From: Catajapyx aquilonaris
Lineage: Eukaryota
DNA length: 49,932 bases
Assembly: GCA_000934665.2 (NCBI GenBank)
Contig: KZ538751.1
Span: 1-49,932, forward strand
Reading direction: 5' to 3'
The number at the start of each line of letters is the position of its first letter. Within the stretch, counting starts at the first letter, position 1. Shown here piece after piece: positions 13,796 through 46,100 of the stretch. A program made the position numbers and the translations under genes. The notes beneath the pieces were generated by a model. That model was not told the DNA's origin, ran no database searches, and worked only from the letters and a program-made list of their open reading frames with translations.

Positions 13796-14139
13796 TACTT
13801 ACAAGGGAACGTCCAATGTCGGTCGCCTCAGATTTGGTTGAAACTCGCTTGAGGGGTCACTCATGTGCGATAGACACTGTGGTGAAAGTTCTAGATGACA
13901 CTGTCCAGCCGTTTCCGAGATATGAGCGACAGAAACATCCTAATTTTGTCCGCGCGCCGTGCTGGGCCTGCTTCCCGCCCGACGCCTGTATACGCGCCGG
14001 TACGCACAGCCATATCTCGGAAACGGCTGGACAGTGTCATCTAGAACTTTCACCACAGTGTCTATCGCACATGAGTGACCCCTCAAGCGAGTTTCAACCA
14101 AATCGGAGGCGACCGACCTTGGTCGTTCCCTTGTTAGTA
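13796..14139. mobile_element. MITE-like foldback element, copy 1 (129-bp inverted arms, TA at both ends)
   Basis: 13796-13924 matches the reverse complement of 14011-14139 with 4 mismatches. Termini are tacttacaagggaac...gttcccttgttagta. No coding capacity. Confidence 0.85.
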
Positions 14140-20241: not shown

Positions 20242-20412
20242 GGCCGGTGTAATCGAGAGAAGCCACCATGCAAGTACTTCCATCCTCCGCAACACTTAAA
20301 GGACCAGCTGCTGATCAACGGCCGCAACCACCTCGCCTTGAAGAACGCCCTCATGCAACAGATGGGCCTGACCCCGGGCCAGCCCCTAGTTCCCGGACAG
20401 GTGCCCACTGTG
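20242..20412 (+). CDS. mbl: Muscleblind exon: C-terminal half of ZnF2 and conserved helix
   Basis: tag|GGC...GTG|gtgagt, 171 nt, phase 0/0. Translates [57 protein letters not shown], the characteristic arthropod Muscleblind sequence. Confidence 0.97.
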
Positions 20413-21929: not shown

Positions 21930-22582
21930 GTAATGGTTCTGCTTATGTACTTAACATTCTGTTCCACACCTTGTTCCACCCACCTCTTACAGATTTTTAG
22001 TGTTAATGTTCATGTGTACAAAATTTTGTTGATTCCTTTTTGTGTATTGCTGTATGTGAGTGTTGTTAATAACCTCATATAATCAGTAGTTAGTGTGGTG
22101 CCTTGCTAATAGAAGGGATGGGATAATTTGGCAGTAACACACAAACTCTCATTACTTCACAGTAATACTTTGCTTGGGTGTCATGTTGGTTTCACAAAAA
22201 AGAGGTTATAAAAACAGTCGAGTCAAATGTCATAATTCACCACAGAAGTGGTCTGTAAGTGTCATCCGCTTATTTGATGGATCCAAAGCGTTAATGGATT
22301 GTTGGATTTTATAGTGGTACTTAATTTGTGCCTCCAGCACTGGGGTCATGCACATGTTTTAACTATTTCCCCCCCTTCTGCTTGAATGGAAAAGCAGACT
22401 TTAAAGTTGCATAGGATGCTATTCTGTCCTCATGTGGGCTCCACATTGGCATTGCTACTGACAGTCCATTAGTACCTTATATGAGATCCCATGTATGCCA
22501 AGGTATAATTCAAAAAGAGAACAAAACCGGGGAATTCCCGACTAATTAGTTTCTCCCTGGTGTTGCCTCCATGACCCAGCAG

Positions 22583-22759
22583 GCCACCAGTCCCTACCTG
22601 ACAGGTGTACCGCAGGTCGGTAGCACTTTCAGCCCCTACTTCAGCCCAAGTCCCCTGGTGCCCCTGGTGCCCCCTGAGGCCGCTGTGGCCTCCCCATTGG
22701 GTGTGGTTCCTCAGTCTGTGGTCACGCCACAGAAAGTGCCCCGATCAGACCGCCTTGAG
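22583..22759 (+). CDS. mbl: Muscleblind linker exon ending in RSDRLE
   Basis: cagcag|GCC...GAG|gtatgt, 177 nt, phase 0/0. Translates ATSPYLTGVPQVGSTFSPYFSPSPLVPLVPPEAAVASPLGVVPQSVVTPQKVPRSDRLE. The tandem CAGCAG acceptor also allows a start at 22580. Confidence 0.95.
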
Positions 22760-25859: not shown

Positions 25860-26084
25860 GTCTGCCGCGAGTATCAGCGAGGAGCGTGCAAACGTGCGGA
25901 GAGCGAGTGCCGCTTTGCCCACCCCCCTGACTCCGTGACGGCCAACGAAGACGGCACTGTCACGGTCTGCATGGACGCTGTGAAGGGGCGCTGCAACCGC
26001 GACCCTTGCCGCTACTTTCACCCCCCTCTCCACCTCCAAGCCCAGCTCAAGGCCGCACAGTCACGGGCCGCCGCTCCCCAAGTG
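25860..26084 (+). CDS. mbl: Muscleblind exon: second tandem CCCH zinc-finger pair (ZnF3/ZnF4)
   Basis: tag|GTC...GTG|gtaggc, 225 nt, phase 0/0. Translates [75 protein letters not shown], with CX7CX6CX3H and CX7CX4CX3H spacing. Confidence 0.97.
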
Positions 26085-30289: not shown

Positions 30290-30367
30290 CCCGTTTCCGT
30301 CGCAACCGTTGCCGGCGTGGAAGTGGGGAAGAAACGCGGCCGTGACCCTAGCGATGACATACTACTG
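30290..30367 (+). CDS. mbl: Muscleblind 78-nt cassette exon with basic NLS-like motif
   Basis: tag|CCC...CTG|gtacca, phase 0/0. Translates PVSVATVAGVEVGKKRGRDPSDDILL. It is a GC-rich island in AT-rich intron and sits just before the KRPA exon, like vertebrate MBNL1 exon 5. Confidence 0.8.
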
Positions 30368-33183
30368 GTACCATAATGCTTTGCATGTCACTCCTTTTTG
30401 TTTTTTTTGTTTTTTTTATATACAAAAAGTAGGAGTAGAGGTGTAGTGTAATGCAGGGTCACATGACATCACCTATGGATTGCAACTTTTGTTTTTTCAT
30501 TTTTTAAATTTTCCAATTGGCCTTTGCAGAACTTGTTCTGAGTTGTTCAGTACTTGCCACTAGTCAACTCTGTGTCACTCACCAACTTGTGAACTACGGG
30601 CAGGCTGACATTTAAAATACAAGTATAAACTCTAAGACTCAATTATCCTGCCATCCTACGGACGACAGTACTGATGAGTACTGAATGCCTGTCTCAACAA
30701 TCAGCCTTCATGATATACTGACGATTGGGAGTCACAGTTTGGTAGCCTCTTGCAGAGATTTGGTTTTTAAAATGTGATTTAATTTGGTGACAGTCTCGTA
30801 TATCCAAAATTGGGGACATCTTGGGGACCTATTTTATTGCTTATTGTGATTTTATTTTTGATTATTTGTATGGAAAAGCATGGCTACCAGCATTGCCCAT
30901 GATTACTCATATGACTACCGGCATATGCAGTAGATATAAAATTATATGCTTATGACATGTACATGCAAACGTTAGGCACTTTCAGATAGTGCAATTCCTA
31001 GACCAGATTTGTTAAAAGCTGTGTGCACCATGGATAGGTAAATATATTTGGTGAGTGATTCAGTATGAAAGCATGCCTGGAAACATTTGTCGGATCTCCC
31101 GAGTTAGTGCTGCCATTTTATTACCTCACTTATTTCACATAATGTAGGGAAAAATCCATTGCATCTTTAGAGATGACGTTCATGTCATGTGATCTTACCC
31201 CCTTTACATGATATTATTTATTGCACAAGCATTCTTTTTGAGTGAAGCTTAGTGAGTGTCACTGAACCAAAAAAAAAAGGCATTTGTTTATTTACTTTAT
31301 ATTTAAGCTTAACCAAAGTAGCAATGCTGTTTCCTTGAAGGATGTTGGTAGTGGTACTAGCCGCATGCAAGTCAATCCAGTTTTTGCGGTGAGATTCTCA
31401 GCTTCACCACCATTACACCTGCTGCTGTGCATTTGACACAAAGTACTGTATCTCGTAGATATTTGGGTGCTTCTGATTCTCAGTCTATGGTTAGGGGTCA
31501 CAGTGTTTCTCTCTTTCTTTGCATGATAGGCCAGCTTCCAAATTGCCACGTACGGGAAATACAGAAAAATAATAATTGCACATAGCGGCTGCCATATCTC
31601 AAGCATAATCCTGGCCCATTTCCTCACACTCCTGCCTTTCACTGCCTTGGCCATCAAAATTAAATTAATTCGCTCTGTGATGAATTGCGTGAGGAGCAGA
31701 AGGAAATCAGCGGACCACAATGCATGTAATGCTTCTTTCTCTTTCCTGATATTTTTATTTCTTTTTTGGAAAAAAAGAAAAGAAATCTGCCTTCATTTGT
31801 GATTTTGATGCTATTGTAGTCACCAGACAGCAGTAATGCTGCGGTGATGGATTCAGTTGCCTTGACCTGTTGTCTTCTCTTCCGAACCTGAAACAATTCG
31901 TGTCAGTGTTATATTGACTGATTTTCAGTTTGGCTGTGCTTTTTGCCATTGTCTTTCCCCCCCTCAGTGCCTACCGAACTACGCGGAAGTTTGTTACTTA
32001 GAACTTCATGTTTGCTGTTTTGTTTGTGCCCAATGAAGTGATTATTGTGAGCTAGGTAAATTGTTTTTGCTTCATGGTTGCACTTTTCCATTCTTTATTA
32101 GGACACTGCCATCGACCCACCTAAATGGTGCATAATTTTGATATTATTCGCCTATAAATTATGGCAAATATGTAAGTGTGTAGGTTGTACCTGGTGAGTA
32201 TGTGTTATTTTTATTCGTGGTGTTTCAGTATGCAACGAGTTACTATTCACTGATACATAATTTACCAGTATAACTTGAATCCATTGTATTTGTTCCAAAA
32301 ATGATGATATTTTCAGCTAGTAAATGCTTTTCAAGTAGGGAATAGGAGACCAGGTTGTTACACTTGTACAACTCTGTTTTAGCTTAATAATTAGGTCCTT
32401 AATTCCTACTGTTAAGTTGCTAGTTTAGAGAGAGAGAGGAAAAAAGTTGTGTATTTTCTTTGCCACTACTTACTGTGTCGTGTGATTTTATGTGTGGTGA
32501 AGACACATGAATATATGTGTAATTAGGCTGTTGCAATTTTAGGGTACATGCATAAATCTCCGAGTTATTAGTGCATGTCAACTAATGATTGCATAGGACA
32601 TCCAATTTGTCATCTAATGTGTGCATCACATGCATTTTGGCCAAGCTTCTGCCTCATGGGGCTTGTGGGGCAGGTGTGTAAATAATTACCCATGACCCAG
32701 TTTACCACCAATGACTACCACCCTGTAACATGACTAGTAAAAATGTTTGACTGTCACATTTGTTTCATGCAGGAATTGTTTTTCGCTGGTAATTAACAGC
32801 GTCCCATAAATTGGCGGTAAGTGCATTGAAATAACTGTGACCAACGATGTTGCTTTTCTTTTTTTTTCTTGGTCATCGTCATCACAGCAGCAGCGTCAAG
32901 ATATTTGTACCAAATTATGTGTGAAGTTGGATTATTACATTACACAGAAGTAGGTTATGATTTACCTAGTAAGAGGAGATGAACTGCATGTCTCCAGACA
33001 AATACTTGTTTTTTTTTCCTTTTTCTATTGTTTATGGAGCATCAGAAAGGAAGACGTGCAGTTTTCCCTGTAGGACATAGGTTAGTGTGTAGCTTGTGCA
33101 TAGAATGCGAAAGAGTTGTGTAATGTGTGAGAGCGGAGGCTATTGGCAGAGGGGCAGATCTGTAACATGGTCGTTCCTTGCAG

Positions 33184-33310
33184 GCCTTTCCAGGCATGGT
33201 GCCATACAAGCGGCCGGCAGGGGACAAGTCAGGAATGCCAGTGTACCAGCCCAATGCCACCGCCTACCAACAGCTGATGCAGTTGCAGCAACCGTTTGTG
33301 CCCGTGTCAT
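33184..33310 (+). CDS. mbl: Muscleblind KRPA exon, short form using the internal donor
   Basis: cag|GCC...TCAT|gtgagt, 127 nt, phase 0/1. Translates AFPGMVPYKRPAGDKSGMPVYQPNATAYQQLMQLQQPFVPVS. Confidence 0.92.
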
Positions 33311-34329
33311 GTGAGTACCAAGGAGGCGCCTCCTCCTCCTCCGCAACTTCCACCCCCACCCCTGCGGCCCTGCAGCTGGACTCTGTTGTGCCCGCCCCCC
33401 ACCACCAACAACTACAGCAACTACACCACCAGCTACCTACCCCGTCCGCTTACACTGCACAGCAAAACAACTTCGCAGCTGTTGCCACTTCCTCATCCTC
33501 CGACAGCCCGTCTCCAACCCATGTCAAAAATGATAAAAGTGATAATCCTGAGATATCCACTGCAGTTACTGTGGCTAGTGGGACCACCACCAGTTCCACC
33601 TCCTCTTCCCCAGTGCTGACTCGCAAGGTGAAGGACACGGTGCCACCCCCTCCTCCTCCTCCACCCCCGCCACCTCCCCTTCCCCCAACCTCTTCTTCTT
33701 CTGCCCTTCTAATGGGAATGCGGCCTGCCACTTACCCACCAACAATCAACCCTGTGACTGTCCTCTCCTACACAGGCGTAGCTCTCAACAAACAGCCAAT
33801 GGTGGCTGCTCCTCCTCCACACCACCAGCAGCACCACCACCATCCAGCTGTCGCTGCTCAGTACCCATTCTTTGCAGCGGCGGCTGCTGGCTTGCCACAG
33901 GGTGCGGCTTTCCCCTTGCATGCTGCCCATAGTTTCAATCATCAGGCCCATCAGGCAGTATCTGCTGCAGCCTACCCCCACCACTCCCACCCAGCAATGG
34001 CCAACTCTGCGGCTGCAGCTGCTGCTGCGGCCGCGGCTGCTTTGGCCAATGCTCAGAGGCCGGCCAATGCTGCTTTGATGCCCCAGTTCGGGGCAGCCGG
34101 ACTTGGGGCAATGGGCATGGCTCACCCACAGATGAGCCAGCAGATGGCTGCTGCTGCGGCAGCTGCAGCTGCACATGCACATCACCAGGCAGCAGCACAG
34201 CAGGCCGGCCTCATGAATAACTTCTTGAGTCAGTATCCCTTGGGCACCACTGCCACCACCACCAACAACAACAACCTTCTCCTTCTAAATGCTAATGTCC
34301 AGCCTGCCAAGCGCATGAAAACTATGTGA
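33184..34329 (+). CDS. mbl: Muscleblind long terminal exon (donor at 33311 unused): low-complexity Ala/Pro/His/Ser tail ending PAKRMKTM*
   Basis: The frame stays open for 381 codons (ORF track 33178-34329). Contains poly-P, poly-A, SYTGVALNKQ and a basic C-terminus. Confidence 0.88.
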   Translation, partial: AFPGMVPYKRPAGDKSGMPVYQPNATAYQQLMQLQQPFVPVSCEYQGGASSSSATSTPTPAALQLDSVVPAPHHQQLQQLHHQLPTPSAYTAQQNNFAAVATSSSSDSPSPTHVKNDKSDNPEISTAVTVASGTTTSSTSSSPVLTRKVKDTVPPPPPPPPPPPPLPPTSSSSALLMGMRPATYPPTINPVTVLSYTGVALNKQPMVAAPPPHHQQHHHHPAVAAQYPFFAAAAAGLPQGAAFPLHAAHSFNHQAHQAVSAAAYPHHSHPAMANSAAAAAAAAAAALANAQRPANAALMPQFGAAGLGAMGMAHPQMSQQMAAAAAAAAAHAHHQAAAQQAGLMNNFLSQYPLGTTATTTNNNNLLLLNANVQPAKRMKTM

Positions 34330-36455
34330 GGAGGATGAGGAGGGTTGCGGCAACCAGCCGGGGAAAGCCTGAAAATCCTTCCCAGTACACACACATACAC
34401 GTACATATACATGCCCATCCACCCCCGATCCACGTTGTGTTTTTTTTATGCGACTCTGGTGGTGGTAGATGCAAGTCTTTTTTAAACATTTTGTGGGCAG
34501 GCCCAGTGCAGTGACCAAAAAAGAAATTCCAACAGAAGTAGGGTGAGAGAGGCTCGCCCTTCCCAGACGCACCTGACGTTATTTTTTTGCACCCTTGCTT
34601 TCTGCATTTCTTTCATAAGAGCCACTAGGCACTCACCCAGTTTTATAAAATCTTATTACCTGTATATGCACACACCAAGCTGTTGTGTGGGAAAGGTGCT
34701 TTGGCGGGCGTGTGATGGACCAAGCTGTAATTTGTTTTTTTCTTTCTGTCTAACAATCATTGTCGTCCCCCCTGGACCCCCAATCTCCAAATGATTCCAT
34801 TGCCTTAAGCACACGTCTTCCAGAGTGTGTTTCTAAGGGGAGTGAAAAATTGACAAAACGTTGTAATGCCATTGTAACAAAAGGGAGTCAGAAGCATTTA
34901 AAGAGATTTGAACAGGTGCGTTTCCGAGGGCGAGCCTGCTGGGCCGTGTCACACCTTTGCATAACAATGCTAGATGTTTGACATCTAGTCACATTTTAAA
35001 ATTCCAAGTCACAAAGTTTATCATTTGTAAACAAAAATGTTGTGAAAGTATTAATATTTTTTGTAGCTAATCTAAAATAGTACTGTGATGTGTTAGTGAA
35101 GAAAACACTAAAATATATAATATATATTATATATATAATAATATCTATATTCCTATGTCATGGTCACTATTATAGATTTTAGTTGAAAGATTGTTTTGAC
35201 ACTGACAAGATTTTTATCCTTGTTGACAATTGAGGGGAAAAAAAGGAAAAAAAAAAAAGCGAGAAGAAGTAAGCATTTTTGTGCAGTTTCGCTCCCAGTG
35301 ATGTTTACAAAACTAGATTGCAAAGCGGAAGGAAAATGATGATAACTGATTGGGTATGGGGAGACCAAGTGTCGCTTTTGTTGCTTTCCTGGTGCATTCA
35401 ATTTTTCCGCAATTGTAGTCCAGTGCAAGGTGCAAGAAAAGGTGGTGGGTTCTATCCCACACTAGCCTGCGTTTGCATGCTGCTGTTGGGCTCCCACTTA
35501 AGCCAGGCAGATTTTAAAAAGCTTCCAACATTTTCCAGCTAAAGTACAGCTGTGATTTTGCTTGGCATATTATATTGGTTGTATTGTTGAAGTTGTACCT
35601 CTGTAGTGCCAAAGTAGTGTCAGCTGTTTTTTTAATTCCTATTATTATTATTATCATTCTTATTATTATCACCATTATTGACTTTTTATCACGTATATTA
35701 GCCTATTGCAAAATAAAAATCATGTGGAAATTTGATGAATACATGATGTAGAATTAAGCGCATCTACCAGTGATAAATCATAACCTTATTGCTAGGGTGA
35801 TGCAATATTTTAATCCACGGATTATGTAACCGATAACCGAGTTAATAGGAGCCCCCTTTTGCTGTAGCAAAATAATGCAGTGGCGAGGATTTTTCCACTG
35901 TGTTGCCATACCCAAATGATGGCTCTGACCCGAATCTGTGACAGACAACCTCGTTTTAATGTACTTAATTTTATAATGCTATTTTTTTTAATTTTCTCTT
36001 TCCACACTGAAAATAACCTGCAATCGAGTTTTATGAAATCTTTTAAATCGCATGCCTGCCATTTCTAATTTGAGATAGATGTTGTACGTAACAGTAACTA
36101 GGCATATTAATCAGTACTGTTAGTGTACAGTAATTTTTTATTACTTTAGCAATCATAATACACAAAGAGTACAATTTGTAGCATGCAGGGTTTGTAAATA
36201 GTAGGCCATAATATTAGTGTATCAGTTGCACACTTGGCGACCGAACGTGTTAATATCATTTTAGTAAACAAATAGTAGGTAATCGCGAGAGAGCCTTTGG
36301 GATACAAGAATAATGTTAAATATATGTTACGTTTAGTTACATTGCATTAGACATGCGTACAATAGGATGTTGATAGCTATTGTTGTGACCAATGATGTCA
36401 TTTTACTACAAACATTCGCAATGATAGTCCATGACTTTGCTGCTTTTTGAATAAA
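34330..36455 (+). other. mbl: Probable 3' UTR of the long-tail isoform, with candidate polyadenylation signals
   Basis: AT-rich sequence after the stop. AATAAA at 35712-35717 and 36450-36455, and a Pumilio-type TGTAAATA at 36193-36200. The true end is unknown. Confidence 0.45.
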
Positions 36456-39400
36456 AATTTCACAATCATGAAGTTGAGGGAAAGTCACTAGTGTCACCTG
36501 CAAAGTCAAAAACTAGTCGCAGAAGCATTTTGCAGTGCACAGGTTTTATTATACTTTCTGTGTACCATATGAAACTTGGCCATAAAATGGCATGTGAATG
36601 ATGCCGATAATGTTTTGAAGTAGACATTTTTTCTGGCTGATGTTCTGGATCGTAGGTCAGAAAGTTTTAACTCTAGTCGGACAAGGGGCTGTGTAACGTA
36701 GTAAAAGAGGCCCGCCATGTAATAGTGCACCACATCATATATACCTTTGGTTGGAATGCTATTGACACAGTTTGATGATGCAAGGAATCATGTGCGGGAC
36801 AAGCCTCTCTAGCAGGAGTAAAGAGCAAGAACAGCGGCGCTGCTTTGCATTGAGCTTGAAATTAATGAACATGGGTGCTGGGGGAGAGAGGGGAGGGAGG
36901 AGAGAGTCTTTTTGCTTTGGCACTGACAGGGGCAAAGAGCAGGTGACGTGTGTGAGCCAGGGAGGTAAGTGAGGTAAGGTGGTGGCACATGTGAGTTTCC
37001 CAAGGTATACAGAATCCAGTGTGGACAGAGTTGCTTCTCGGACCAAATTTCATCCGTTCTTTAGATAGATAAAAAAAATATACAAGCACAGATTCCGGTT
37101 CTTTGATCGAATCCGCAAGGATATCAATTGACAGTCGAGTCGCCTTAAGAGAAAGAGCAAAATGAAAAGAGAAGGCATGAAAAAGTGGAGCAGTCCTTGT
37201 CGGTGACCATTTTTGAAGTTGTAGCATTATTTTCAACTTCTTCCAAAGTGCAGTTGCTGATATTTTGCTTTCATTGTCCTCTTCTGCTGTCCAGTTTGGG
37301 TTACAAGGTTGAACTGTAGCATAGCTTGCTTCTTAAAGTATATACCAGTGTTGTATACAGTGCTGTACACCTTGGGATGTGTAATGTAATGTCTAATCTT
37401 TGCTGATTTTTTGTATGTAAATCAGCAGCACAATAATAATGCTTAAAAGTGCATGATAATTGTTTTATTAATCCTTCTCTCTTCAAGATTCTCTCTCCTA
37501 AAACCCTGTATTGAGTTCTGGACTTTTTTTGAGTTTCGCCAGTGTTTTTTTTTTACAAATTGTTTTTTCGGTTCCTTTTGACTTGCATTTTGTGCGTGCG
37601 CCTGTGCCAGAGGTAAGCAACTTCCAGATGTCTACTAACCCTCTATTAGCTTTGGCCATAGGCACTGGTAGCTTCTGCCGCAGTGGAGTAGAAACAAAAG
37701 AATCTTGCACACCTTTTGACCTGATGGTTGGGATGGGATGGTTGTTGCCGGCTATTCAAGCTTGTTGCTTACTAGGGAGAGGGCAGCGAAAACCATGGGA
37801 CACGGTCCGCTCTGTACCGACATGTGCGGGACAAGGTCCGACACCATGTGTGTGTGCGTGTGGGTGTGAGTGCGTGCGATATGCATTGCAGGTCTGCTGT
37901 GTCATTTCAACAGGGCTGCTTTTTTTCACCTGGTGTGCATGGCCTCCAACACTTGCCTTTAGAGCCCTTGCAGCTTCTATTGTCTTAAGTGCTGCTGTTG
38001 AAATGAATCAGTGACCTGCCAGTTACATTTGGAAACTAAGTGGGGGTGCAATCACCTGACGAGAGAAACTCTAAAAACCAGCTTCACTCTACCTACCGCC
38101 AGCAGCATATCAGAATAGTAGCAGAAATGTCGTCCTGGAGCGACAGTAATTGTGCAAGATCATTGTGATAGACTGTGTATAATAGTGACGCTTACTTGTC
38201 GCGTGCGAATGCAGATGGTGCGTGTGTAAATGTGACTACAGATGTACACGTTTACTTTACAGTAGGTGTGCATTCCTACATCGACCCGAGGCATCCTGGT
38301 GTCAACTGGGTGGATTCATAACAGGGAACTAAATACATCTCACCAGGAGAAATTATAAGCGCAAGATGCCAACGGCTCGGAGAACAGGCTCGAGCAGCGG
38401 AGGAAAATGAAAAGAACTCTTTTTTCCAAATTTTTTGTGTTTTTAGTGTGGTGTGATATTTAGGAAAAGAAAAAAATAATGTTGATTCGTTTCTTTTGGA
38501 CAATGAAGAAGTCAATTATATAACGTCTTGTATCTCATTCAAGTGGCTTACCTCTCCAAGTATTTGAATCTTGCGGAAATGTTTTCTTTTTTTTTCTTCT
38601 TCGTCGTGGACTCCTTACTGGTCACGTAGGAATGCACAGTAGCTTATAAGAAGAAGACATTAGTGAAATCAGTGCACTTGTCCCATGGTTTCATGTCCTT
38701 TTCCGGAGAGCATATAAAATCTGGAGTAACGTAGTGTGGGAACCACTGGATGGCTAGAGGCACTAGCAAATGGCATTTGATTTATTCTCGTTAGGTCAGG
38801 TTTTTTTGCCCGGTTCTGTTGCATGTTGCAAACAGAACGTTGGTTGGTAGAACAATTTGTTGTTCCTAAAAGTGCAAGAGACAAAGGGGGAGTAGCCAGT
38901 ATAAAAGATATAATACAATATGATGTCAAGTGTTGTTTGTCATGGTTGAGTTACATCAATTTTTACATCAGTGCTTGGCCCTGAACTTAGAAAATCTAAT
39001 ATTAGAAATTCATGTCCAAGAACTCACGGGTCAGGGGCATTGGTGGTAAGTATTGGTCTCTGTGAAAAATATATGCAAAAAGTGATGTTAATGACGTTAT
39101 GAAAAATGGAATAAAAAAAGAAGCCAAATCAGCAACAATCAAATGGACGGCATACAAGTTTGCTTTCCTCATCCAGGCAAAAGGCGCACAGGTGCACATC
39201 TCAATTATTACGACTACAGTTTTGCGAAGTGTTTCCGTTAGTTTTCATAGTTTAGCACATCTCTGCTTATTCTGAGTATGTTGGCTTGAAGCTATTTATT
39301 TATTTATTTTGGTTTCTTTGGCACCTTTTTTTCCAGTACAAGCCCATGTTTTTGACCACCCAAACGCTGGTTATCCATTCATGTATTAGTGAAGCTGTCA

Positions 39401-39496
39401 CGTGGAAGGTACACCACAGATGGTTATGTTCCCCAAACAACACATTTTTTGCCCCAGGTGCTTTCATAACCTCATTTTAACAGCGACGACTTCAAG

Positions 39497-40251
39497 ATTT
39501 GTTGTTTTGCGCACGTTGTATAATGATTTTCTCATTTTGTTTCGTCTCTTCCTTTTTATGCTTTTCTGGCGATGTTTGGCTGTTGACTCTGCACCTTCCC
39601 CAATTCCTGGCTTCCTGAACATCCTCTGCCATCTCATTCCAACCGCACGTCATGCTGCGGACACCTGCCCTCACCACCATCCGGATGTCCTGATGTTTCG
39701 TTCTGGACGACTCCCAATCCCAATCCTCACGAATGGCTTGGAAAATTACCTCATTCAACCATGGTCATCCTCTCCACATACACCCAAAAAAACCAAATTG
39801 CAATGCGGTGATGGTAATGTGTTAACACACTTTTCCTATCTGCCAAACTCTGGTGTCTGTTCAACATGGGCAATACTTTTTGGCCCTTTTTTTACCCCAC
39901 TCATCTCCCTCGTATCGCAATATGTTTGCGTGGCCCTTGGAATCAACACTCGGCTGCAATGCAAACACACTAACACCCTCTCTGTACATTTTTTGTTGTT
40001 GTCTGGGTTGCAAAATATGCTGGGGTTCTGGGGGGTATGGTCACCTTTTTGAAAACAAAATAATAATGGGGAGAAAAATGGCAAAACAAATCCTGTTGCG
40101 GTTTGGGTGGATGTCCAATACTCTGCTCTGCTGCGTTGGCACGGACTACCCCCACTTCGACCTTCCTGGCCTGGCCTGTTGCACTCGGTGTGACCCTTGT
40201 GCGCGCCGGAATGACCTGCTGCTTGGCTGCTACTGCATGGTGGGACGGTAG
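39497..40251 (+). promoter_or_regulatory. Very long AG-exclusion zone with candidate distant branch point and YGCY cluster
   Basis: No AG in 39497-40071, one GAG at 40071-40073, none in 40074-40249, then TAG at 40249-40251. CACTAAC at 39968-39974. YGCY at 40124, 40129, 40204, 40217, 40220 and 40228. Confidence 0.75.
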
Positions 40252-40310
40252 CCTTGCACGCAGTGCCCAGTAATGTGCATAGTGTTGTCTACACTGATGA
40301 AAATGGACAG
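40252..40310 (+). CDS. mbl: Muscleblind 59-nt frame-switching cassette exon
   Basis: tag|CCTTG...GGACAG|gtagac, phase 1 in and phase 0 out. Translates (S)LHAVPSNVHSVVYTDENGQ and joins the KRPA exon in frame to LLDTLPVCQDF. An in-frame alternative acceptor gives a start at 40264. Confidence 0.85.
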
Positions 40311-41264
40311 GTAGACCCTCTCCTTTTTTCTATAGTTACTCTTGTTAGAGTGTGTTCATGGTGAGTGTTTTTTACCATTTTGAAAGGGGCTGGCAGGGAC
40401 GGGAGATGCCGGGGGTCGAACAGTTTTTTTTTTGGTCTGTATTATGCAAGTTGCTTGAAAATGAGAATTCTGTTTCTGATTGTGTCTAACGCACCACCAA
40501 GAATGTTGTTTGCATTGCAGCAACCGAATTTACATTTTCATGCGACTGACTGGCATCATTTTTCTAAAGCATACCAGGATGGCCCCTCTCCACCTCCCCT
40601 CCTCTGCACCCACATTCTTGTAGCCTTGTTGTACACTTATTGTAGTGGCAAATTACCTCAATTTTTTTTTATTCTTACATAATGCACGACTTGTTATTAC
40701 TGCCGTATTAATCTGGATTTTCGCTTTGAACAAGAGAGCGTTCTTTGCAAGGATGTCATTGTTGGGTTAAATTTTTTATTTTTTTTGCCGCTTCTAACCA
40801 ACACTTTTTTTTCTCAATTGACAAGCTTTTTGCATTTTCCTGAAGCCACAAGGCCTGCCCATTCCACACGTCACTTAGGTGTCCTCTTCCTGCCGTTGCA
40901 GGTGGTAAGGGAGAAGGTTTTAATTTTTTGCCGATTGCTGGATGGAGCGTGACAATCCTTCCCATTCTCTTTCTTCCCTCCTCTGTTCAGAAAAAGAAAC
41001 GCGTCGGACATTGTTCTTTTTACGAAGATAAATTTTCTCATTATGCAGAACATGAAATACGTTTTTTGAATGACAGAATCGCCCGGGCCTTGGAGTTTGT
41101 TACATATTATTGTTATTTATATTTTTGTTCCTGTTGTAAGTGTCATACCGGTTCTTTGCGGAATTGCCATGACACTGTAGTTTGTTAAAAGATGCAGAGC
41201 AAGACTTGTTTGTTGGGGGGATGTATGCGTAAAAAGAAATGACAGCGCTTTTCTCTTTCCATAG

Positions 41265-41349
41265 TTGCTGGACACCCTCCCGGTGTGCCAAGATTTTAAG
41301 CGCAGTCAGTGCCGATGCCCATCCTGCAAGTACGTGCATCTGCTCGAAG
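41265..41349 (+). CDS. mbl: Dual-frame Muscleblind exon: ZnF5 (phase-0 entry) or FAGHPPGVPRF* terminus (phase-1 entry, stop 41297-41299)
   Basis: ttttctctttccatag|TTG...GAAG|gtacaa, 85 nt. One frame reads LLDTLPVCQDFKRSQCRCPSCKYVHLLE (CX7CX4CX3H). The other reads T+TT GCT GGA CAC CCT CCC GGT GTG CCA AGA TTT TAA. Confidence 0.92.
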
Positions 41350-41561
41350 GTACAAAACCTAGCCGAGATGAGGGGGGGAAAGAGAGGGAGCTATACTGTG
41401 TAGTAGAGAGAAAGAGAGGAGAGGGCTTTTTCAGGGTGGGGGAGTGGGAATAGTGAGAGTCCAGTCTTTTCCTGCCTAATTGTTGTTGTTGAGATACAAG
41501 TCCATGACTTTTCCACTACTATTCCAGTTTTCTTTTCTTTTCTCCCCATGGCCCTTGGCAG

Positions 41562-41968
41562 ATCACAAGGAGGTGGTGGACAGCAAGGTGACAGTGTGTC
41601 GTGATGCAGAGAAAGGGCAGTGCTTTCGTCCCCTGTGCAAGTACTACCACATCCCCATACCTTTGCCCCCTGCTGGCGACATGGCCCCCCACCACCACCA
41701 CCATCACCACCATCACCTGGCCTCGACTGGAAGCAGCACCATTGCCGTCAGCACCAACAACACTACGACCACCACAGCGGCCGCCTTCTATCCGGACGGT
41801 TGGGGGGCCTGGGTGCCTATGGACGCCATAGTCCCCTGTGCGGGTGGCTGGATCGGAGCTGCCCCTGCTCATTCTATGATGGATGCCACTATGCAGGGAG
41901 AGTTGCATGCAGCATCTGCTGAGGATGGGTTCCGGGTGCTGGCTCCAGTGCTGGCTGGAACAGGCTGA
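41562..41968 (+). CDS. mbl: Muscleblind terminal exon: ZnF6 and poly-His tail
   Basis: cag|ATCAC, phase-1 entry matching the donor after 41349. Translates DHKEVVDSKVTVCRDAEKGQCFRPLCKYYHIPIPLPPAGDMAPHHHHHHHHHL...AGTG* (CX7CX4CX3H). Confidence 0.9.
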
Positions 41969-43153
41969 TTCAGCCACGCCACCAGGTCCGGCGGCAGGTC
42001 TCAAAAGCAAGGCGCGAGAATTATGGGGAATTATTACATTACGTCTGCAGGTTTGAAAGAGGACTCATGATCAAGGCAGCCATGTCCCTGCACACTTCAC
42101 AACATGGTCTATGCATATAACTATAGACTTAAATGTCCTTCCCTCCTTCTGATTTTAGTAGGCATGGAATTTATTTTCCAATACTCATTTTAACCAGCAA
42201 AACTTTCCATGTCTGTGGCCATGATATTATTTGCATTGACCAAAATTACAACCTTTCCTTCCCCCCCAAGTTTTCCAGTATTTTGCTGCACTAGGTTTTT
42301 TTTTTAATGTTGGTCATTTTGTCATATATTTAGAACACGAGGCCACAATCCAGCAGCATTGTTGACAAGGGTGCAAGTGTGTTTTTTAAAAATTTGTTTA
42401 GTTCTGGGTTTTGCCAATTGACATGACTGTGTGCAGGGTTATCAAGACATCATGGCCCGAATGAAGGACCAGGATGAAGCTGTGAGTCTGTGCAAGTGTG
42501 TTCATGTTGCCACCGGGAGTGACAGTGCAAGATTTTTTCCGAGAGAGATTTTTTCCAACGTGGTCCATTTGTTTTGATTACCGTTGCTATTATAATTATT
42601 ATAACGATGATTATTATTTACTTGAGGTTACATGAAACGAAGCCTTCCTTCCAAAACAAATTTAAGGGAGAGAAAAAAAAATAATGAAGAAGCAACATGG
42701 CTCTGGGTATGGTAGGGAGTAGCTCAGAATCGTAGGTGTTTGCTGTGGTTCAGAAGAGACCAACAAGAGAGTTGTACCGACCAGTAGGGTCCCCAGTAAA
42801 TCCCCCCAGTGAGAACAATGTTTTAACAAAGCAAAAATGAGCCAAGTTGTAAAAAAAAATTGTGTTAGGACATGTGGTGTGTAGCATACATCCGTTTAGC
42901 CTGTTTGACTGAATTAACGCTGCACTAACTGTCCAGAGTTTGCAGAAGGAAGGAGTTTGTTGGGGTCCGGTTCGGAAGGGGAATATTAAAAGTGAGCCAA
43001 GTCAAGTCGTGTGAGTCACAGGCGCTTCGGAGGGGGGTGAGGTGGCCCGCAGATGACAGATCCACCCACCGTTGCCACTCTAGCTCATTCTCTGTCCCCC
43101 CCTGTCTATTGTTGTTGTCATTGTTGTAGCCTCTTCCTCAGGCTTGTACACAT

Positions 43154-43196
43154 TAAGAAACGAATAAATGAAAGTAAGAAACGAATAAATTGAAAG
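43154..43196 (+). repeat. Tandem 21/22-nt duplication containing two AATAAA signals (candidate polyA site of distal isoforms)
   Basis: taagaaacgaataaatgaaag followed by taagaaacgaataaattgaaag. AATAAA at 43163 and 43184. Confidence 0.55.
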
Positions 43197-46100
43197 TAAA
43201 TCAGGGATGCTTCCCAGGACTAAAACTCTGAGTCCGCATCCAGGAATACTCATGTGCAATGCATTGAATGCACCTGCCCATAAAGCACCTTATATGTGGA
43301 GAGAAATTGAATTGTAAATTTTTCAAAGTAACTTACAAACTTGTACAAGAAACACAAGATTGTCCATTATTCGGTCCAAGGAAATAGAAAGGATAAGTTT
43401 TAACCATTCCGCATCCCTATATTTCTTTCTATCCATAATAGTACGCCATTATGTGCAGAAGGGTCTTGCATGTGCGTTTTCTTGGGCATGGATACGCAGG
43501 GTTTAACTTTGCAAAAGAACAAACTATGCAATACATTGGTAAAGGCAACGGTGGAGTGTGCCACTCACTGCCCTCTGGCAGAAGCGCAAGTGACTTGGGT
43601 GCCGATCGGTTCTAGTCAAACGAGTGAAGAGGGCGGCCAGGTTTTTTTGTTTTTTATTCCTTCTCTCTCCCTGGCGCGTTCCTTCCCTAGAGGCTGTGAG
43701 CACTGTCCCGGAACGTGTTTATTATTAATAATATTATTACTATTATTAGTATAATTTTTTGCGGCTACTCTCGTCTTCATTGAAGGTGCGAAGGGGGTGA
43801 GGGTGCCTTGGACAGCATGAAACTGATGTTTCCCCCACTTCCTTGCTTCCTCCCTCTGGGTTACTCCCTACTCCTGCTACACTCCAAGCACATAATAATT
43901 ATGCAACTATGGAAAAGCTATTTAGGCAGGAGAGGAGTCACGCATGGGAAGAGGAGTCAGCAGAGGGAAGGCAGGAGGAGGTGGGGGGGAAATCGAAGGA
44001 ATCCAGTCCGAAGCACTCCCGCTGCCCAAGGAGTATCCAGTGATAAAAATATCCCTTGTATTGACATGAAGTGCCACAATCGTTTTTTATGTGTACATTT
44101 AAACGTGAAAAAAATGAATGTTCCTGTACAGCATTTAAGAATCAAAGATAGGTCAGGGCTTAGGGTACCACACTTTTTGCCGGCTTACTTGCAGAAGCAT
44201 TTTGTTTGACTGCCCGCTTTGATCATTCTGCTGTCTCGTCGTCGTCATTGGTTTTCTGGTCAGCAGGTGTTGCAACCTGTGTCGCACACAAGACACTTGC
44301 AGGCCAGAACCATTGCAAATGGGCGTCGACATTAAGGGGGCCTCTGTTGCCCATCAGGTTACATTGATAGCCGTCATATTATGCATGCATTATTATGCAG
44401 TAGGGACATTTTAGCTCTCCACATGCCCCCCTCCCCGTGCTTATCCCATCCCCTCTACCCGTAACACCCTGCCATCTAGTTAATTCCTTCCGTTTGCTTC
44501 CCTTGTTCCCTCATTTGACTTTGAATATTTTTTGTTTCCATTTGAAGTGGAGTTGAACGTGTAAAACGAATCTATCAAATGTCTATTTTGAAAGTTCCTG
44601 TGCAGATTGGCTTTGTTGGTGTATATATATGTGAAAAAAATTTGATGATCACTTGTACATATTATATCAGATGTTCCCACCTAAAATCATGTATAATAGT
44701 TTTTACTATTTTGTTAATTTTATTCAGAGTTGTAAATGGTATACATGATCCAGATTGACGGGTTTGGAGGACTGGAGCATGTGTGAGACAGGCAGACTCG
44801 TAACCCTAGCACTATGATAAACCTTTTAATGCCAACCAACCTTGAGATGGGGGAGCTTCCAGAAACATTGACAGGGTCCGTGGGGTTTGGCTTTTACAGC
44901 ATGTGGGTGCTGTTTGACTGGGGGCTTAAGACGGCTTGCAAAAGGACGGAGCAAAATAAGAGGCTTGTTGTTGCTAGGGAAGATTTAAAAGCTCATTTAG
45001 TTCCTTTTCAAATTTGATGCTTTCTTTTGGGGCAGCACAAATTGAAGGGTTGTATTGATCACAACCAGCAGCACCATACATTTGGAAGTGAAGTGATCTG
45101 GCAAGTGAGCTTGGGGATCTGTAAAATACTTGTAGTGACCAGGCAGATTACATTGTTGTTGCAAGGGTGTAATGGTGCAAATGAGAAAAGTGAATTTCGA
45201 ATTGCATAATTTCGAAATACTGATACCAACAGAGCTAATACGATGATTACAGAATGTGACATCCCTCCAAGCAGGATAACGCTTAGGAAACCTCATCAAT
45301 TTTCAGTCAGTTTGTCATTGACTCAAAATATTATTCCATCCACCAGTGATAGGAAACCCTGCATTTTTTTGTCGTCTGGTGGCCATTTGAAAATTTGAAT
45401 ATTGCTCGGTTGATTGCCAAGATTTTAAAATGCAACATTTCACTTTCCTCATTGACACTTATTATGCATCCTTTCAAAGAAAAATAAGTGCTCTACAGAT
45501 TCTCTCACTCACTTGCAGGCTGCTTAATCTTATTGTGGCTGAATTAGAGGCTTCAAACATTTTTGGGTGCATTAAAAGGCCAAATAATTATCTGCGTTGA
45601 CCCCCCCTCACTTTTGGTCCCCCAAATACATCCCTCTCCCATCCCCACCCTTTACGCCAGCGACAGATACCAGTAACCCTTTTGCCGTAACCCTGCCCGA
45701 ACCAAGAGAGCTTGTTGAAAGCAAAAGCAACAAAGCAGATCCATTCTTGTGGACAGGTCAGTTCCCTCCACCCATGCCCATCCATTAATAGTTTTGCAGT
45801 TACTATCCATAGCCATTAGAGTGTAGGTCTTCAAAGTCACATAGGTACAAACTCGTCAAGCACCCAGGAAATTTCCCATGGAAAAATGAATCAAATGATA
45901 ATGGCAGTACATTTTCACAGGTAGATTTTCATGCACTTTAGGCAATGGAAAAATTGACCATGGATTTTCGCGTAGTTTTAGTAGTGACGAGTTTCAGGCG
46001 AGTAGAGAACATAGATACTACGATGAGGGAGCTCTGGCCGCGTTGGTGGCCTGGCACCTTGAACACCCCTCCCACTCCCCCAATCCCTCCTCTAACAACA

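Follow-up and report, generated by a model that had tools for sequence, protein, structure and literature searches.

The 49,932-nucleotide (nt) stretch of Catajapyx aquilonaris DNA analysed here (KZ538751.1, forward strand; hereafter the window) probably carries the 3′ half of an arthropod muscleblind (mbl) gene, in which a conserved set of three alternative C-termini departs from a phase-1 splice donor at position 33310. Depending on whether a 59-nt exon is included, the first 35 nt of the exon at 41265-41349 can be read as a short tail ending in a stop or as the beginning of a third tandem zinc finger (TZF) pair. As far as aligned sequences tell, purifying selection is visible in both frames of this overlap.

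One exon can be read in two frames

The coordinates claimed for the locus were read directly from the window and recomputed by script. The parts involved in the choice of C-terminus, with the evidence for each, are as follows.

33184-33310, + strand: KRPA exon (MblC-type, with the 'FKRP' motif), ending in phase 1; 93-95% identical to insect orthologues.
33311-34329, + strand: read-through extension CEY..., the third alternative C-terminus; an open frame, and 64 of 127 relatives continue CEY... after ...FVPVS.
40252-40310, + strand: 59-nt non-triplet cassette exon, which takes the frame out of phase 1 into phase 0; 26 of 127 relatives have a homologous segment, and loci L022 and L039 have genomic counterparts.
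41265-41349, + strand: dual-coding exon, giving LLDTLPVC... and finger 5 in the finger frame; sequence, PF22628 scan and metagenome loci.
41265-41299, + strand: overlap segment, giving (F)AGHPPGVPRF and TAA in the tail frame; ends of relatives, joints in contigs resembling complementary DNA (cDNA-like) and frozen synonymous sites.
41562-41968, + strand: final coding exon with finger 6, IPIPLPPA, a His run and a low-complexity tail, forming 3′ untranslated region (3′UTR) in the short-tail isoform; PF22628, and adjoins the dual-coding exon in 15 cDNA-like contigs.

The KRPA exon (127 nt, bordered by ag and gtgagt) reads AFPGMVPYKRPAGDKSG...QQPFVPVS and stops one base into a codon at the internal gtgagt donor at 33310. 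The 59-nt exon lies between ag and gtagac and encodes ...VVYTDENGQ, the 85-nt exon 41265-41349 lies between ag and gtacaa, and the final coding exon follows an ag acceptor and closes with TGA at 41966-41968. When the 59-nt exon is skipped and 33310 is joined to 41265, the message gains the 11-residue tail FAGHPPGVPRF and a TAA at 41297-41299. When it is included, ...VVYTDENGQ is followed by LLDTLPVCQDFKRSQCRCPSCKYVHLLE and then by DHKEVVDSKVTVCRDAEKGQCFRPLCKYYH, a frame that holds two CX7CX4CX3H fingers, finger 5 at 41286-41339 and finger 6 at 41597-41650. The initial annotation had described the phase-1 end of the KRPA exon, the short tail with its stop at 41299 and the finger frame reached through the 59-nt exon, and recomputation found all of these exact. 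The short-isoform stop at 41297-41299 lies exactly 50 nt 5′ of the 41349 donor, the last exon junction.

The KRPA frame also stays open past donor 33310, for 381 residues counted from 33184, to a stop at 34327-34329. This read-through tail begins CEY..., is of low complexity and rich in Ala, Gln, Pro and His, and ends KRMKTM. The donor therefore lies inside a long terminal exon, which leaves at least three C-termini to choose from. Both readings of exon 41265-41349 are beyond chance, as they recur in relatives and as one open frame of 1332 nt, ending at the TGA, runs through eight window exons that all have canonical AG/GT borders.

These features fit a model with three routes. In route (a), 33310 would be left unspliced, giving the long low-complexity tail that ends at 34329. 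In route (b), 33310 would be joined to 41265, so that the first 35 nt are read one base out of step into the MblC-type end ..GHPPGVPRF, with the remainder of exon 41265-41349 and the finger-6 exon becoming 3′UTR. In route (c), 33310 would be joined to 40252-40310 and then to 41265; the non-triplet exon would reset the phase and open a third MBNL-type CCCH pair, the overlap bases here encoding the leading strand and first cysteine of the fingers 5/6 unit. Since upstream cassettes run from phase 0 to phase 0, the third pair could be combined with TZF1 alone or with TZF1 and TZF2, the latter making six fingers. We hold this three-way model of arthropod mbl, taken as a whole, with high confidence, and Catajapyx presumably makes both routes (b) and (c).

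Genomic counterparts of the 59-nt exon at two other loci differ in size. At L022 the counterpart is 113 nt long and ends ...SVNYFDENKQ before a GTATAT donor, and at L039 it is 47 nt long and ends ...SVNYTDEQGQ before a GTAAGT donor; both are located roughly 0.85-1.3 kb before the dual-coding exon. Lengths of 59, 113 and 47 nt are all 2 mod 3, so the length varies by taxon, with the effect on phase and the terminal motif both preserved. On these lengths and phases, the frame change is the predicted effect of a non-triplet alternative exon.

Both readings recur in relatives

The last exon, used as a query, brought up ten muscleblind models, and six fingers are present in four of them (Schistocerca P0001, Ischnura P0002, Xylocopa P0003 and the scallop Pecten P0004). 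A further search with the KRPA exon matched 683 proteins; the best 120 listed and the first ten models gave 127 relatives whose sequences were compared after ...FVPVS. The commonest C-terminus among them (64/127) reads through the donor as CEY... into a long low-complexity tail. In 18 of the 127 the protein ends with FTGHPPGVPRF directly after ...FVPVS, and P0092, a nineteenth tail-frame relative, also reaches ...TGHPPGVPRF, past an insert. A ...V.YTD..GQ segment leading into LLDTLPVC... is present in 26; the script had placed 28 in this finger-frame class, from which P0098 and P0099 were removed as read-through forms. Other ends account for 14 relatives, and 4 do not have the ...FVPVS anchor.

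Tail-frame and finger-frame open reading frames (ORFs) are thus both present among the muscleblind sequences of relatives. Several short-tail proteins are complete ORFs of 246-320 residues from contigs (Logan, ENA or JGI) only 1-5 kb long; contigs this short that carry the full ORF of a large gene point to spliced RNA. The Logan ORFs P0164, P0165 and P0167 take the route from YTD..GQ to LLDTLPVC on contigs of 1.5-2 kb and have four fingers each. In P0006, a phase-0 exon spliced straight to the finger-5 exon also yields the finger frame. The initial annotation had proposed that one small exon sets the number of fingers; the frame shift by the 59-nt exon stands, and the proposal proved too simple in view of the read-through tail, the joining of phase-0 exons to 41265 as in P0006, and a TZF2 that is itself a cassette.

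So as not to select on the overlap, orthologous DNA was gathered from metagenome contigs scanned with an alignment restricted to the finger-6 region. The scan gave 39 loci. The finger-5 exon is also present in 24 of these, and in 15 of the 24 it adjoins the finger-6 exon directly, as in cDNA. The KRPA-type exon runs straight onto the dual-coding exon in the tail frame in ten of the 15 cDNA-like contigs (L012, L013, L014, L015, L018, L021, L028, L029, L031 and L032), so that relatives' transcripts use the joint of route (b). Four more (L020, L023, L024 and L030) reach the tail frame via an in-frame insert, and the last, L019, has intron-like sequence upstream of the dual-coding exon. Several of these contigs are full-length ORFs that run from an MA[MV]VN start to x[TA]GHPP[GS][VLM][PQ]RF and a stop, with an intact finger pair behind it in the 3′UTR. 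Judging by their other fingers, the cDNA-like contigs are probably crustacean-like or lophotrochozoan-like: L012 and Mytilus P0196 have the same finger 3, and L020, L028 and L029 match Pecten exactly in finger 2. The lophotrochozoan-like L020 (1400-1560), L023 (780-910), L024 and L030 have an insert of 13 or 22 codons and a longer ...VAGHPPS[VM]PRF end.

The distal fingers form a third MBNL-type pair

Fingers 5 and 6 repeat the CX7CX4CX3H pattern across a 15-residue linker, the same linker length as in the TZF2 of the window and within the range of about 14-16 residues taken for MBNL-type pairs. Pfam PF22628 scores 31.5 bits on the finger-6 exon, over the cut-off of 27, and 21.4 bits, under that cut-off, on the 28-residue finger-5 exon alone. 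Solved domains were compared by phmmer using the mosquito orthologue P0079 as the query, which matched 2e5s, 5u6l, 3d2q, 5u6h, 3d2n and 2rpp over approximately 60-70 residues. The third pair aligns end to end with the finger 3/4 structures of MBNL2 and MBNL1 (2e5s, 5u6l and 3d2q; E = 1.6e-13 to 2.1e-12), whereas the finger 1/2 structures align more weakly, with E values reaching 4.6e-9 over all solved-domain matches. By these alignments, the distal fingers are genuinely a tandem pair of the MBNL type, and the pair is predicted to bind RNA.

To follow the distribution of the pair, residues 352-446 of P0001 were used in a search that gave 186 matches, of which the best 120 were listed and 29 inspected. 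Six fingers were found in insects, including Drosophila montana P0162 (for which a strict pattern counts five, as an insert splits finger 2), in crustaceans (Panulirus P0145 and Amphibalanus P0158), in chelicerates (Nephila P0140, Centruroides P0149 and Rhipicephalus P0173), in molluscs (Mercenaria P0151, Lymnaea P0192 and Biomphalaria P0221), in a hemichordate (Ptychodera P0150) and in corals (Porites P0189 and Stylophora P0195). Hemichordate proteins retain the boundary motif as ...YYNAQ.Q / L.ETLPVC. No vertebrate occurs among the best 120 of the 186 third-pair matches. Under a stricter pattern, all three pairs are present in 44 of the 235 proteins gathered, and the first and third pair only in 54.

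The initial annotation had suggested that the locus could encode a six-finger, three-TZF Muscleblind. Models of this kind do exist in many animals, and every exon 5′ of the KRPA exon runs from phase 0 to phase 0, so that phase, at least, permits the six-finger combination in the window. The window itself, in a six-frame scan, contains only four complete CCCH fingers, with TZF1 lying mostly outside it. Six-finger molecules would be made from such a locus according to our model.

Several observations weigh against the three-way model. Neither the finger frame nor the frame-shifting exon is found in any of the 15 cDNA-like contigs, so the finger-frame route looks minor wherever examined. The inserts of L020, L023, L024 and L030 are multiples of three, and an upstream insert is therefore not always a toggle. 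All six-finger sequences encountered are database gene models, and no transcript contig examined carries TZF2 together with the third pair. An AlphaFold2 model of P0079, built from a 20-row alignment, has a mean pLDDT (predicted local distance difference test score) of 50.9 and a pTM (predicted template modelling score) of 0.35, too poor to judge the fold.

Some of this evidence suits an alternative in which six-finger proteins are not actually produced. The third pair would then occur with TZF1 only, in four-fingered proteins like fly MblF, and the six-finger entries would be artefacts of gene models that string all exons together. Besides the origin of the six-finger entries in gene models, the transcript-derived third-pair ORFs P0164, P0165 and P0167 with their four fingers agree with it, and among the cDNA-like contigs only L012 has a complete TZF2 pair and this contig ends in the short tail. 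Such artefacts do not readily account for the compact six-finger proteins, of about 380-420 residues, of the corals (P0189 and P0195) and the hemichordate (P0150), for the phase compatibility of all window exons, or for the presence of three pairs in 44 of 235 proteins drawn from many annotation projects. We therefore consider this explanation unlikely, while granting it a real share of the probability, and retain the six-finger combination as part of the three-way model.

In the model of P0079, residues 71-87 place a VIYTD strand, which derives from the frame-shifting exon, in a pair with LLDTLPV, at a block pLDDT of about 71-74; no other part of the model reaches moderate confidence (block means 68-74). 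This is a hint that the 59-nt exon may add a structural strand to the third finger domain.

The overlap is constrained in both frames

Of the 24 loci that include the finger-5 exon, 22 have the tail-frame stop in an identical position. The two exceptions are coral-like, and their lack of a shifted-frame tail or stop suggests that the overlap postdates the branching of cnidarians. In these two genomic sequences, L035 (487-570) and L036 (3479-3560), the finger-5 exon starts SSNGLPVCRDF..., with no shifted-frame tail or stop.

Constraint was compared between the 12 codons of the overlap and the 16 codons of the rest of the exon in 18 distinct exon sequences (23 with duplicates, window included). 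Third positions of the finger frame have an entropy of 0.48 bit in the overlap and 1.49 bit in the rest of the exon, and 6 of 12 are invariant in the overlap compared with 0 of 16 elsewhere (one-sided Fisher p ~0.0025, calculated by hand). Where the residue is the same, finger-frame codons differ in 21% of cases in the overlap and in 57% in the rest, a contrast that, like the others, consists of simple counts and not of a formal codon model accounting for the tree. The contrast cannot be put down to relatedness, since one tree underlies both the overlap and the rest. All six frozen sites fall on first positions of tail-frame codons, and one of them is the T of the stop, invariant in 18 of 18 sequences. 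The initial annotation had asked whether both frames would be conserved and whether synonymous variation would be reduced in 41265-41299; relatives end in either frame (18/127 and 26/127), synonymous sites are frozen only in the overlap, and both expectations are confirmed.

In mammals, the nonsense-mediated-decay rule sets a threshold of 50-55 nt between a stop and the last exon junction. With its TAA 50 nt 5′ of the 41349 donor, the short-tail message sits at the borderline of this rule, and it carries a long 3′UTR with an intact finger ORF. The joint of 33310 to 41265 might on that basis be mainly regulatory and unproductive, a decay target that tunes the level of Muscleblind and not a source of protein. 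The tail peptide is, however, conserved with conservative changes (x[TA]GHPP[GS][VLM][PQ]RF) and with a fixed stop in 22 of 24 loci, and full-length short-tail ORFs are the commonest form in the cDNA-like contigs (14/15), which is unexpected for a decay target. In the available text of PMC2238819, moreover, rescue and splicing assays are reported to give the highest activity for the fly isoform MblC. A mainly regulatory role is thus improbable, and translation of the short tail is the reading we keep.

As for the frozen synonymous sites, exonic enhancers are common near 3′ splice sites and the constrained stretch abuts one and is only 35 nt long, but a splicing enhancer or RNA structure beside the acceptor is very improbable as their cause in place of second-frame selection, since all six invariant sites are first codon positions of the tail frame including the invariant stop T, the residue changes seen in the finger frame (P to Q or R, Q to R) leave the tail peptide unaltered, and annotated and transcript-derived ORFs end exactly at the tail-frame stop.

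On the sequences compared, the third pair is apparently as old as the cnidarians, and the overlap dates from the ancestor that arthropods and molluscs share. A bolder reconstruction is that Muscleblind of the ancestral animal already had six fingers in three TZFs, and that the first 35 nt of the finger-5 exon were overprinted with the tail and stop of the MblC-type isoform before the split of ecdysozoans and lophotrochozoans, with one non-triplet exon choosing between the frames ever since. We offer this only tentatively and would put it at slightly under an even chance.

Upstream exons identify the gene

The Schistocerca, Ischnura and Pecten muscleblind models map onto the window exon by exon (tblastn). 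The exons upstream of the KRPA exon are as follows.

20242-20412, + strand: second half of finger 2 (TZF1) and start of the linker; tblastn of P0001 and P0002, AG/GT borders, 171 nt, phase 0 to 0.
22580-22759, + strand: linker exon ending ...RSDRLE, phase 0; tblastn of muscleblind models, AG/GT borders.
25860-26084, + strand: second tandem pair (fingers 3 and 4; vertebrate-like TZF2) in a single exon; CCCH at 25863-25922 and 25968-26021, PF22628.
30290-30367, + strand: exon PVSVATV...KKRGRDPSDDILL, phase 0 to 0; tblastn of muscleblind models, AG/GT borders.

TZF2, with its vertebrate-like pattern CREYQRG... / CMD..KGRC..., is encoded by one exon in the window, where PF22628 scores 97.7 bits over two stretches, in agreement with the description in Irion 2012. 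This exon is a cassette in relatives, present in P0002 and absent from P0005 of the same species. The KRPA exon reads ...PYKRPAGDKSG..., an instance of the [FY]KRPA motif, and its identity of 93-95% is to insect muscleblind proteins. The first TZF1 exon was not found in the window by tblastn, TZF1 being represented there only by the second half of finger 2. In most insect relatives a micro-exon, MDMK..GSFYYENF, stands before the KRPA exon; a pattern search of 30368-33183 did not find it in the window.

Relation to known muscleblind genes

The window is the orthologue of the fly MblC/MblF isoform architecture, which is expected for this gene, already in databases and partly in print. The closest known system is mbl of Drosophila melanogaster with its MblC and MblF isoforms, which belongs to the same family and has the same exon logic. 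In the available text of Irion 2012 (PMC3315501), TZF1 of the fly gene is split by a large intron and a vertebrate-like TZF2 is placed in a single cassette exon; among the other published fly isoforms, MblF alone is credited there with two pairs, the divergent second one being 32% identical to human. That second pair fits the distal pair described here. The Drosophila models P0162 and P0217 pass from ...VIYTDASGQ into LLDTLPVCQDFNRSMC..., as the finger frame of the window does. Fly MblC may end in a similar GHPPGVPRF; no Drosophila record compared ends in the short tail. According to the available portion of Vicente-Crespo 2008 (PMC2238819), conservation of the MblC-specific region extends from nematodes to humans. 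The caution in the initial annotation that the exons may not be new was well placed, given that Irion 2012 (PMC3315501) cites MblF and that, in the excerpts of PMC2238819, the MblC-type end is conserved.

The RefSeq models Schistocerca serialis cubense X9 (P0001) and Ischnura elegans X9 (P0002) share with the window the order of TZF1, TZF2, KRPA exon, a YTD..GQ segment of 20-21 residues, third pair and IPIPLPPA. Models of this type are 71-78% identical to the last exon of the window over its conserved part. They differ in being computed models, and the finger 5 sequence KRSQCRCPSC and the His-rich tail are particular to the window. The dual-coding regions of vertebrate MBNL1 and MBNL2 are a device of the same kind in the same family; from the available text of two preprints (bioRxiv 10.64898/2026.05.28.727796 and 10.64898/2026.02.24.707805), MBNL1 and MBNL2 are among the dual-coding regions preserved across vertebrates. 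The vertebrate MBNL proteins are described with two finger pairs only in the available text of PMC11837677. In the solved MBNL domains (2e5s; 5u6l, 3d2q/3d2s and 3d2n), fingers 1 and 3 have the pattern CX7CX6CX3H, in contrast to the CX7CX4CX3H of the first finger of the third pair.

As far as their accessible text goes, Oddo 2016 (PMC5041496), a 2025 review (PMC11837677), PMC6357765 and PMC3965525 describe one or two finger pairs only. We found no description of a third pair, of six fingers or of dual coding in an invertebrate muscleblind in the literature covered, outside which most subscription journals lie. What appears to be new, as a description found nowhere, is the depth of the third pair and of the overlap, and the explicit use of one exon in two frames.

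Muscleblind and MBNL proteins are splicing regulators that are sequestered in myotonic dystrophy, and the fly and worm models of the disease presuppose proteins with one finger pair or two. A conserved third pair that is switched on by a 59-nt exon, and is otherwise silent in the 3′UTR of the main isoform, could alter the range or valency of RNA targets in particular tissues of these invertebrate models. The 35-nt overlap is in addition a clear-cut and very ancient case of an exon coding in two frames, each of them under selection. If the ancestral Muscleblind did have six fingers, a whole RNA-binding module of a disease-related family would be unstudied.

Candidate regulatory motifs and neighbouring sequence

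One further feature lies immediately upstream of the 59-nt exon.

40217-40231, + strand: three UGCU motifs, a candidate Muscleblind binding site; YGCY count in 40192-40251.

The interval 40192-40251 contains four YGCY motifs, three of them UGCU within 15 nt, which places it at the 98.6th percentile of 60-nt windows. The 59-nt exon has a weak acceptor rich in purines, and the UGCU cluster sits 21-35 nt 5′ of it. No comparable cluster was found at the same place upstream in L022 and L039, where YGCY motifs are scattered, and the cluster is not clearly conserved. As a lead, this candidate site suggests that Muscleblind may autoregulate inclusion of the exon. An Rfam scan of 39500-43500 found no family, and among the stop-to-stop ORFs on both strands of 40000-42300 no other one has a recognised relative. 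The densest YGCY stretch of the window, with 7 motifs in 60 nt, is at 13940-14000 in a GC-rich patch 5′ of the first mapped mbl exon (20242).

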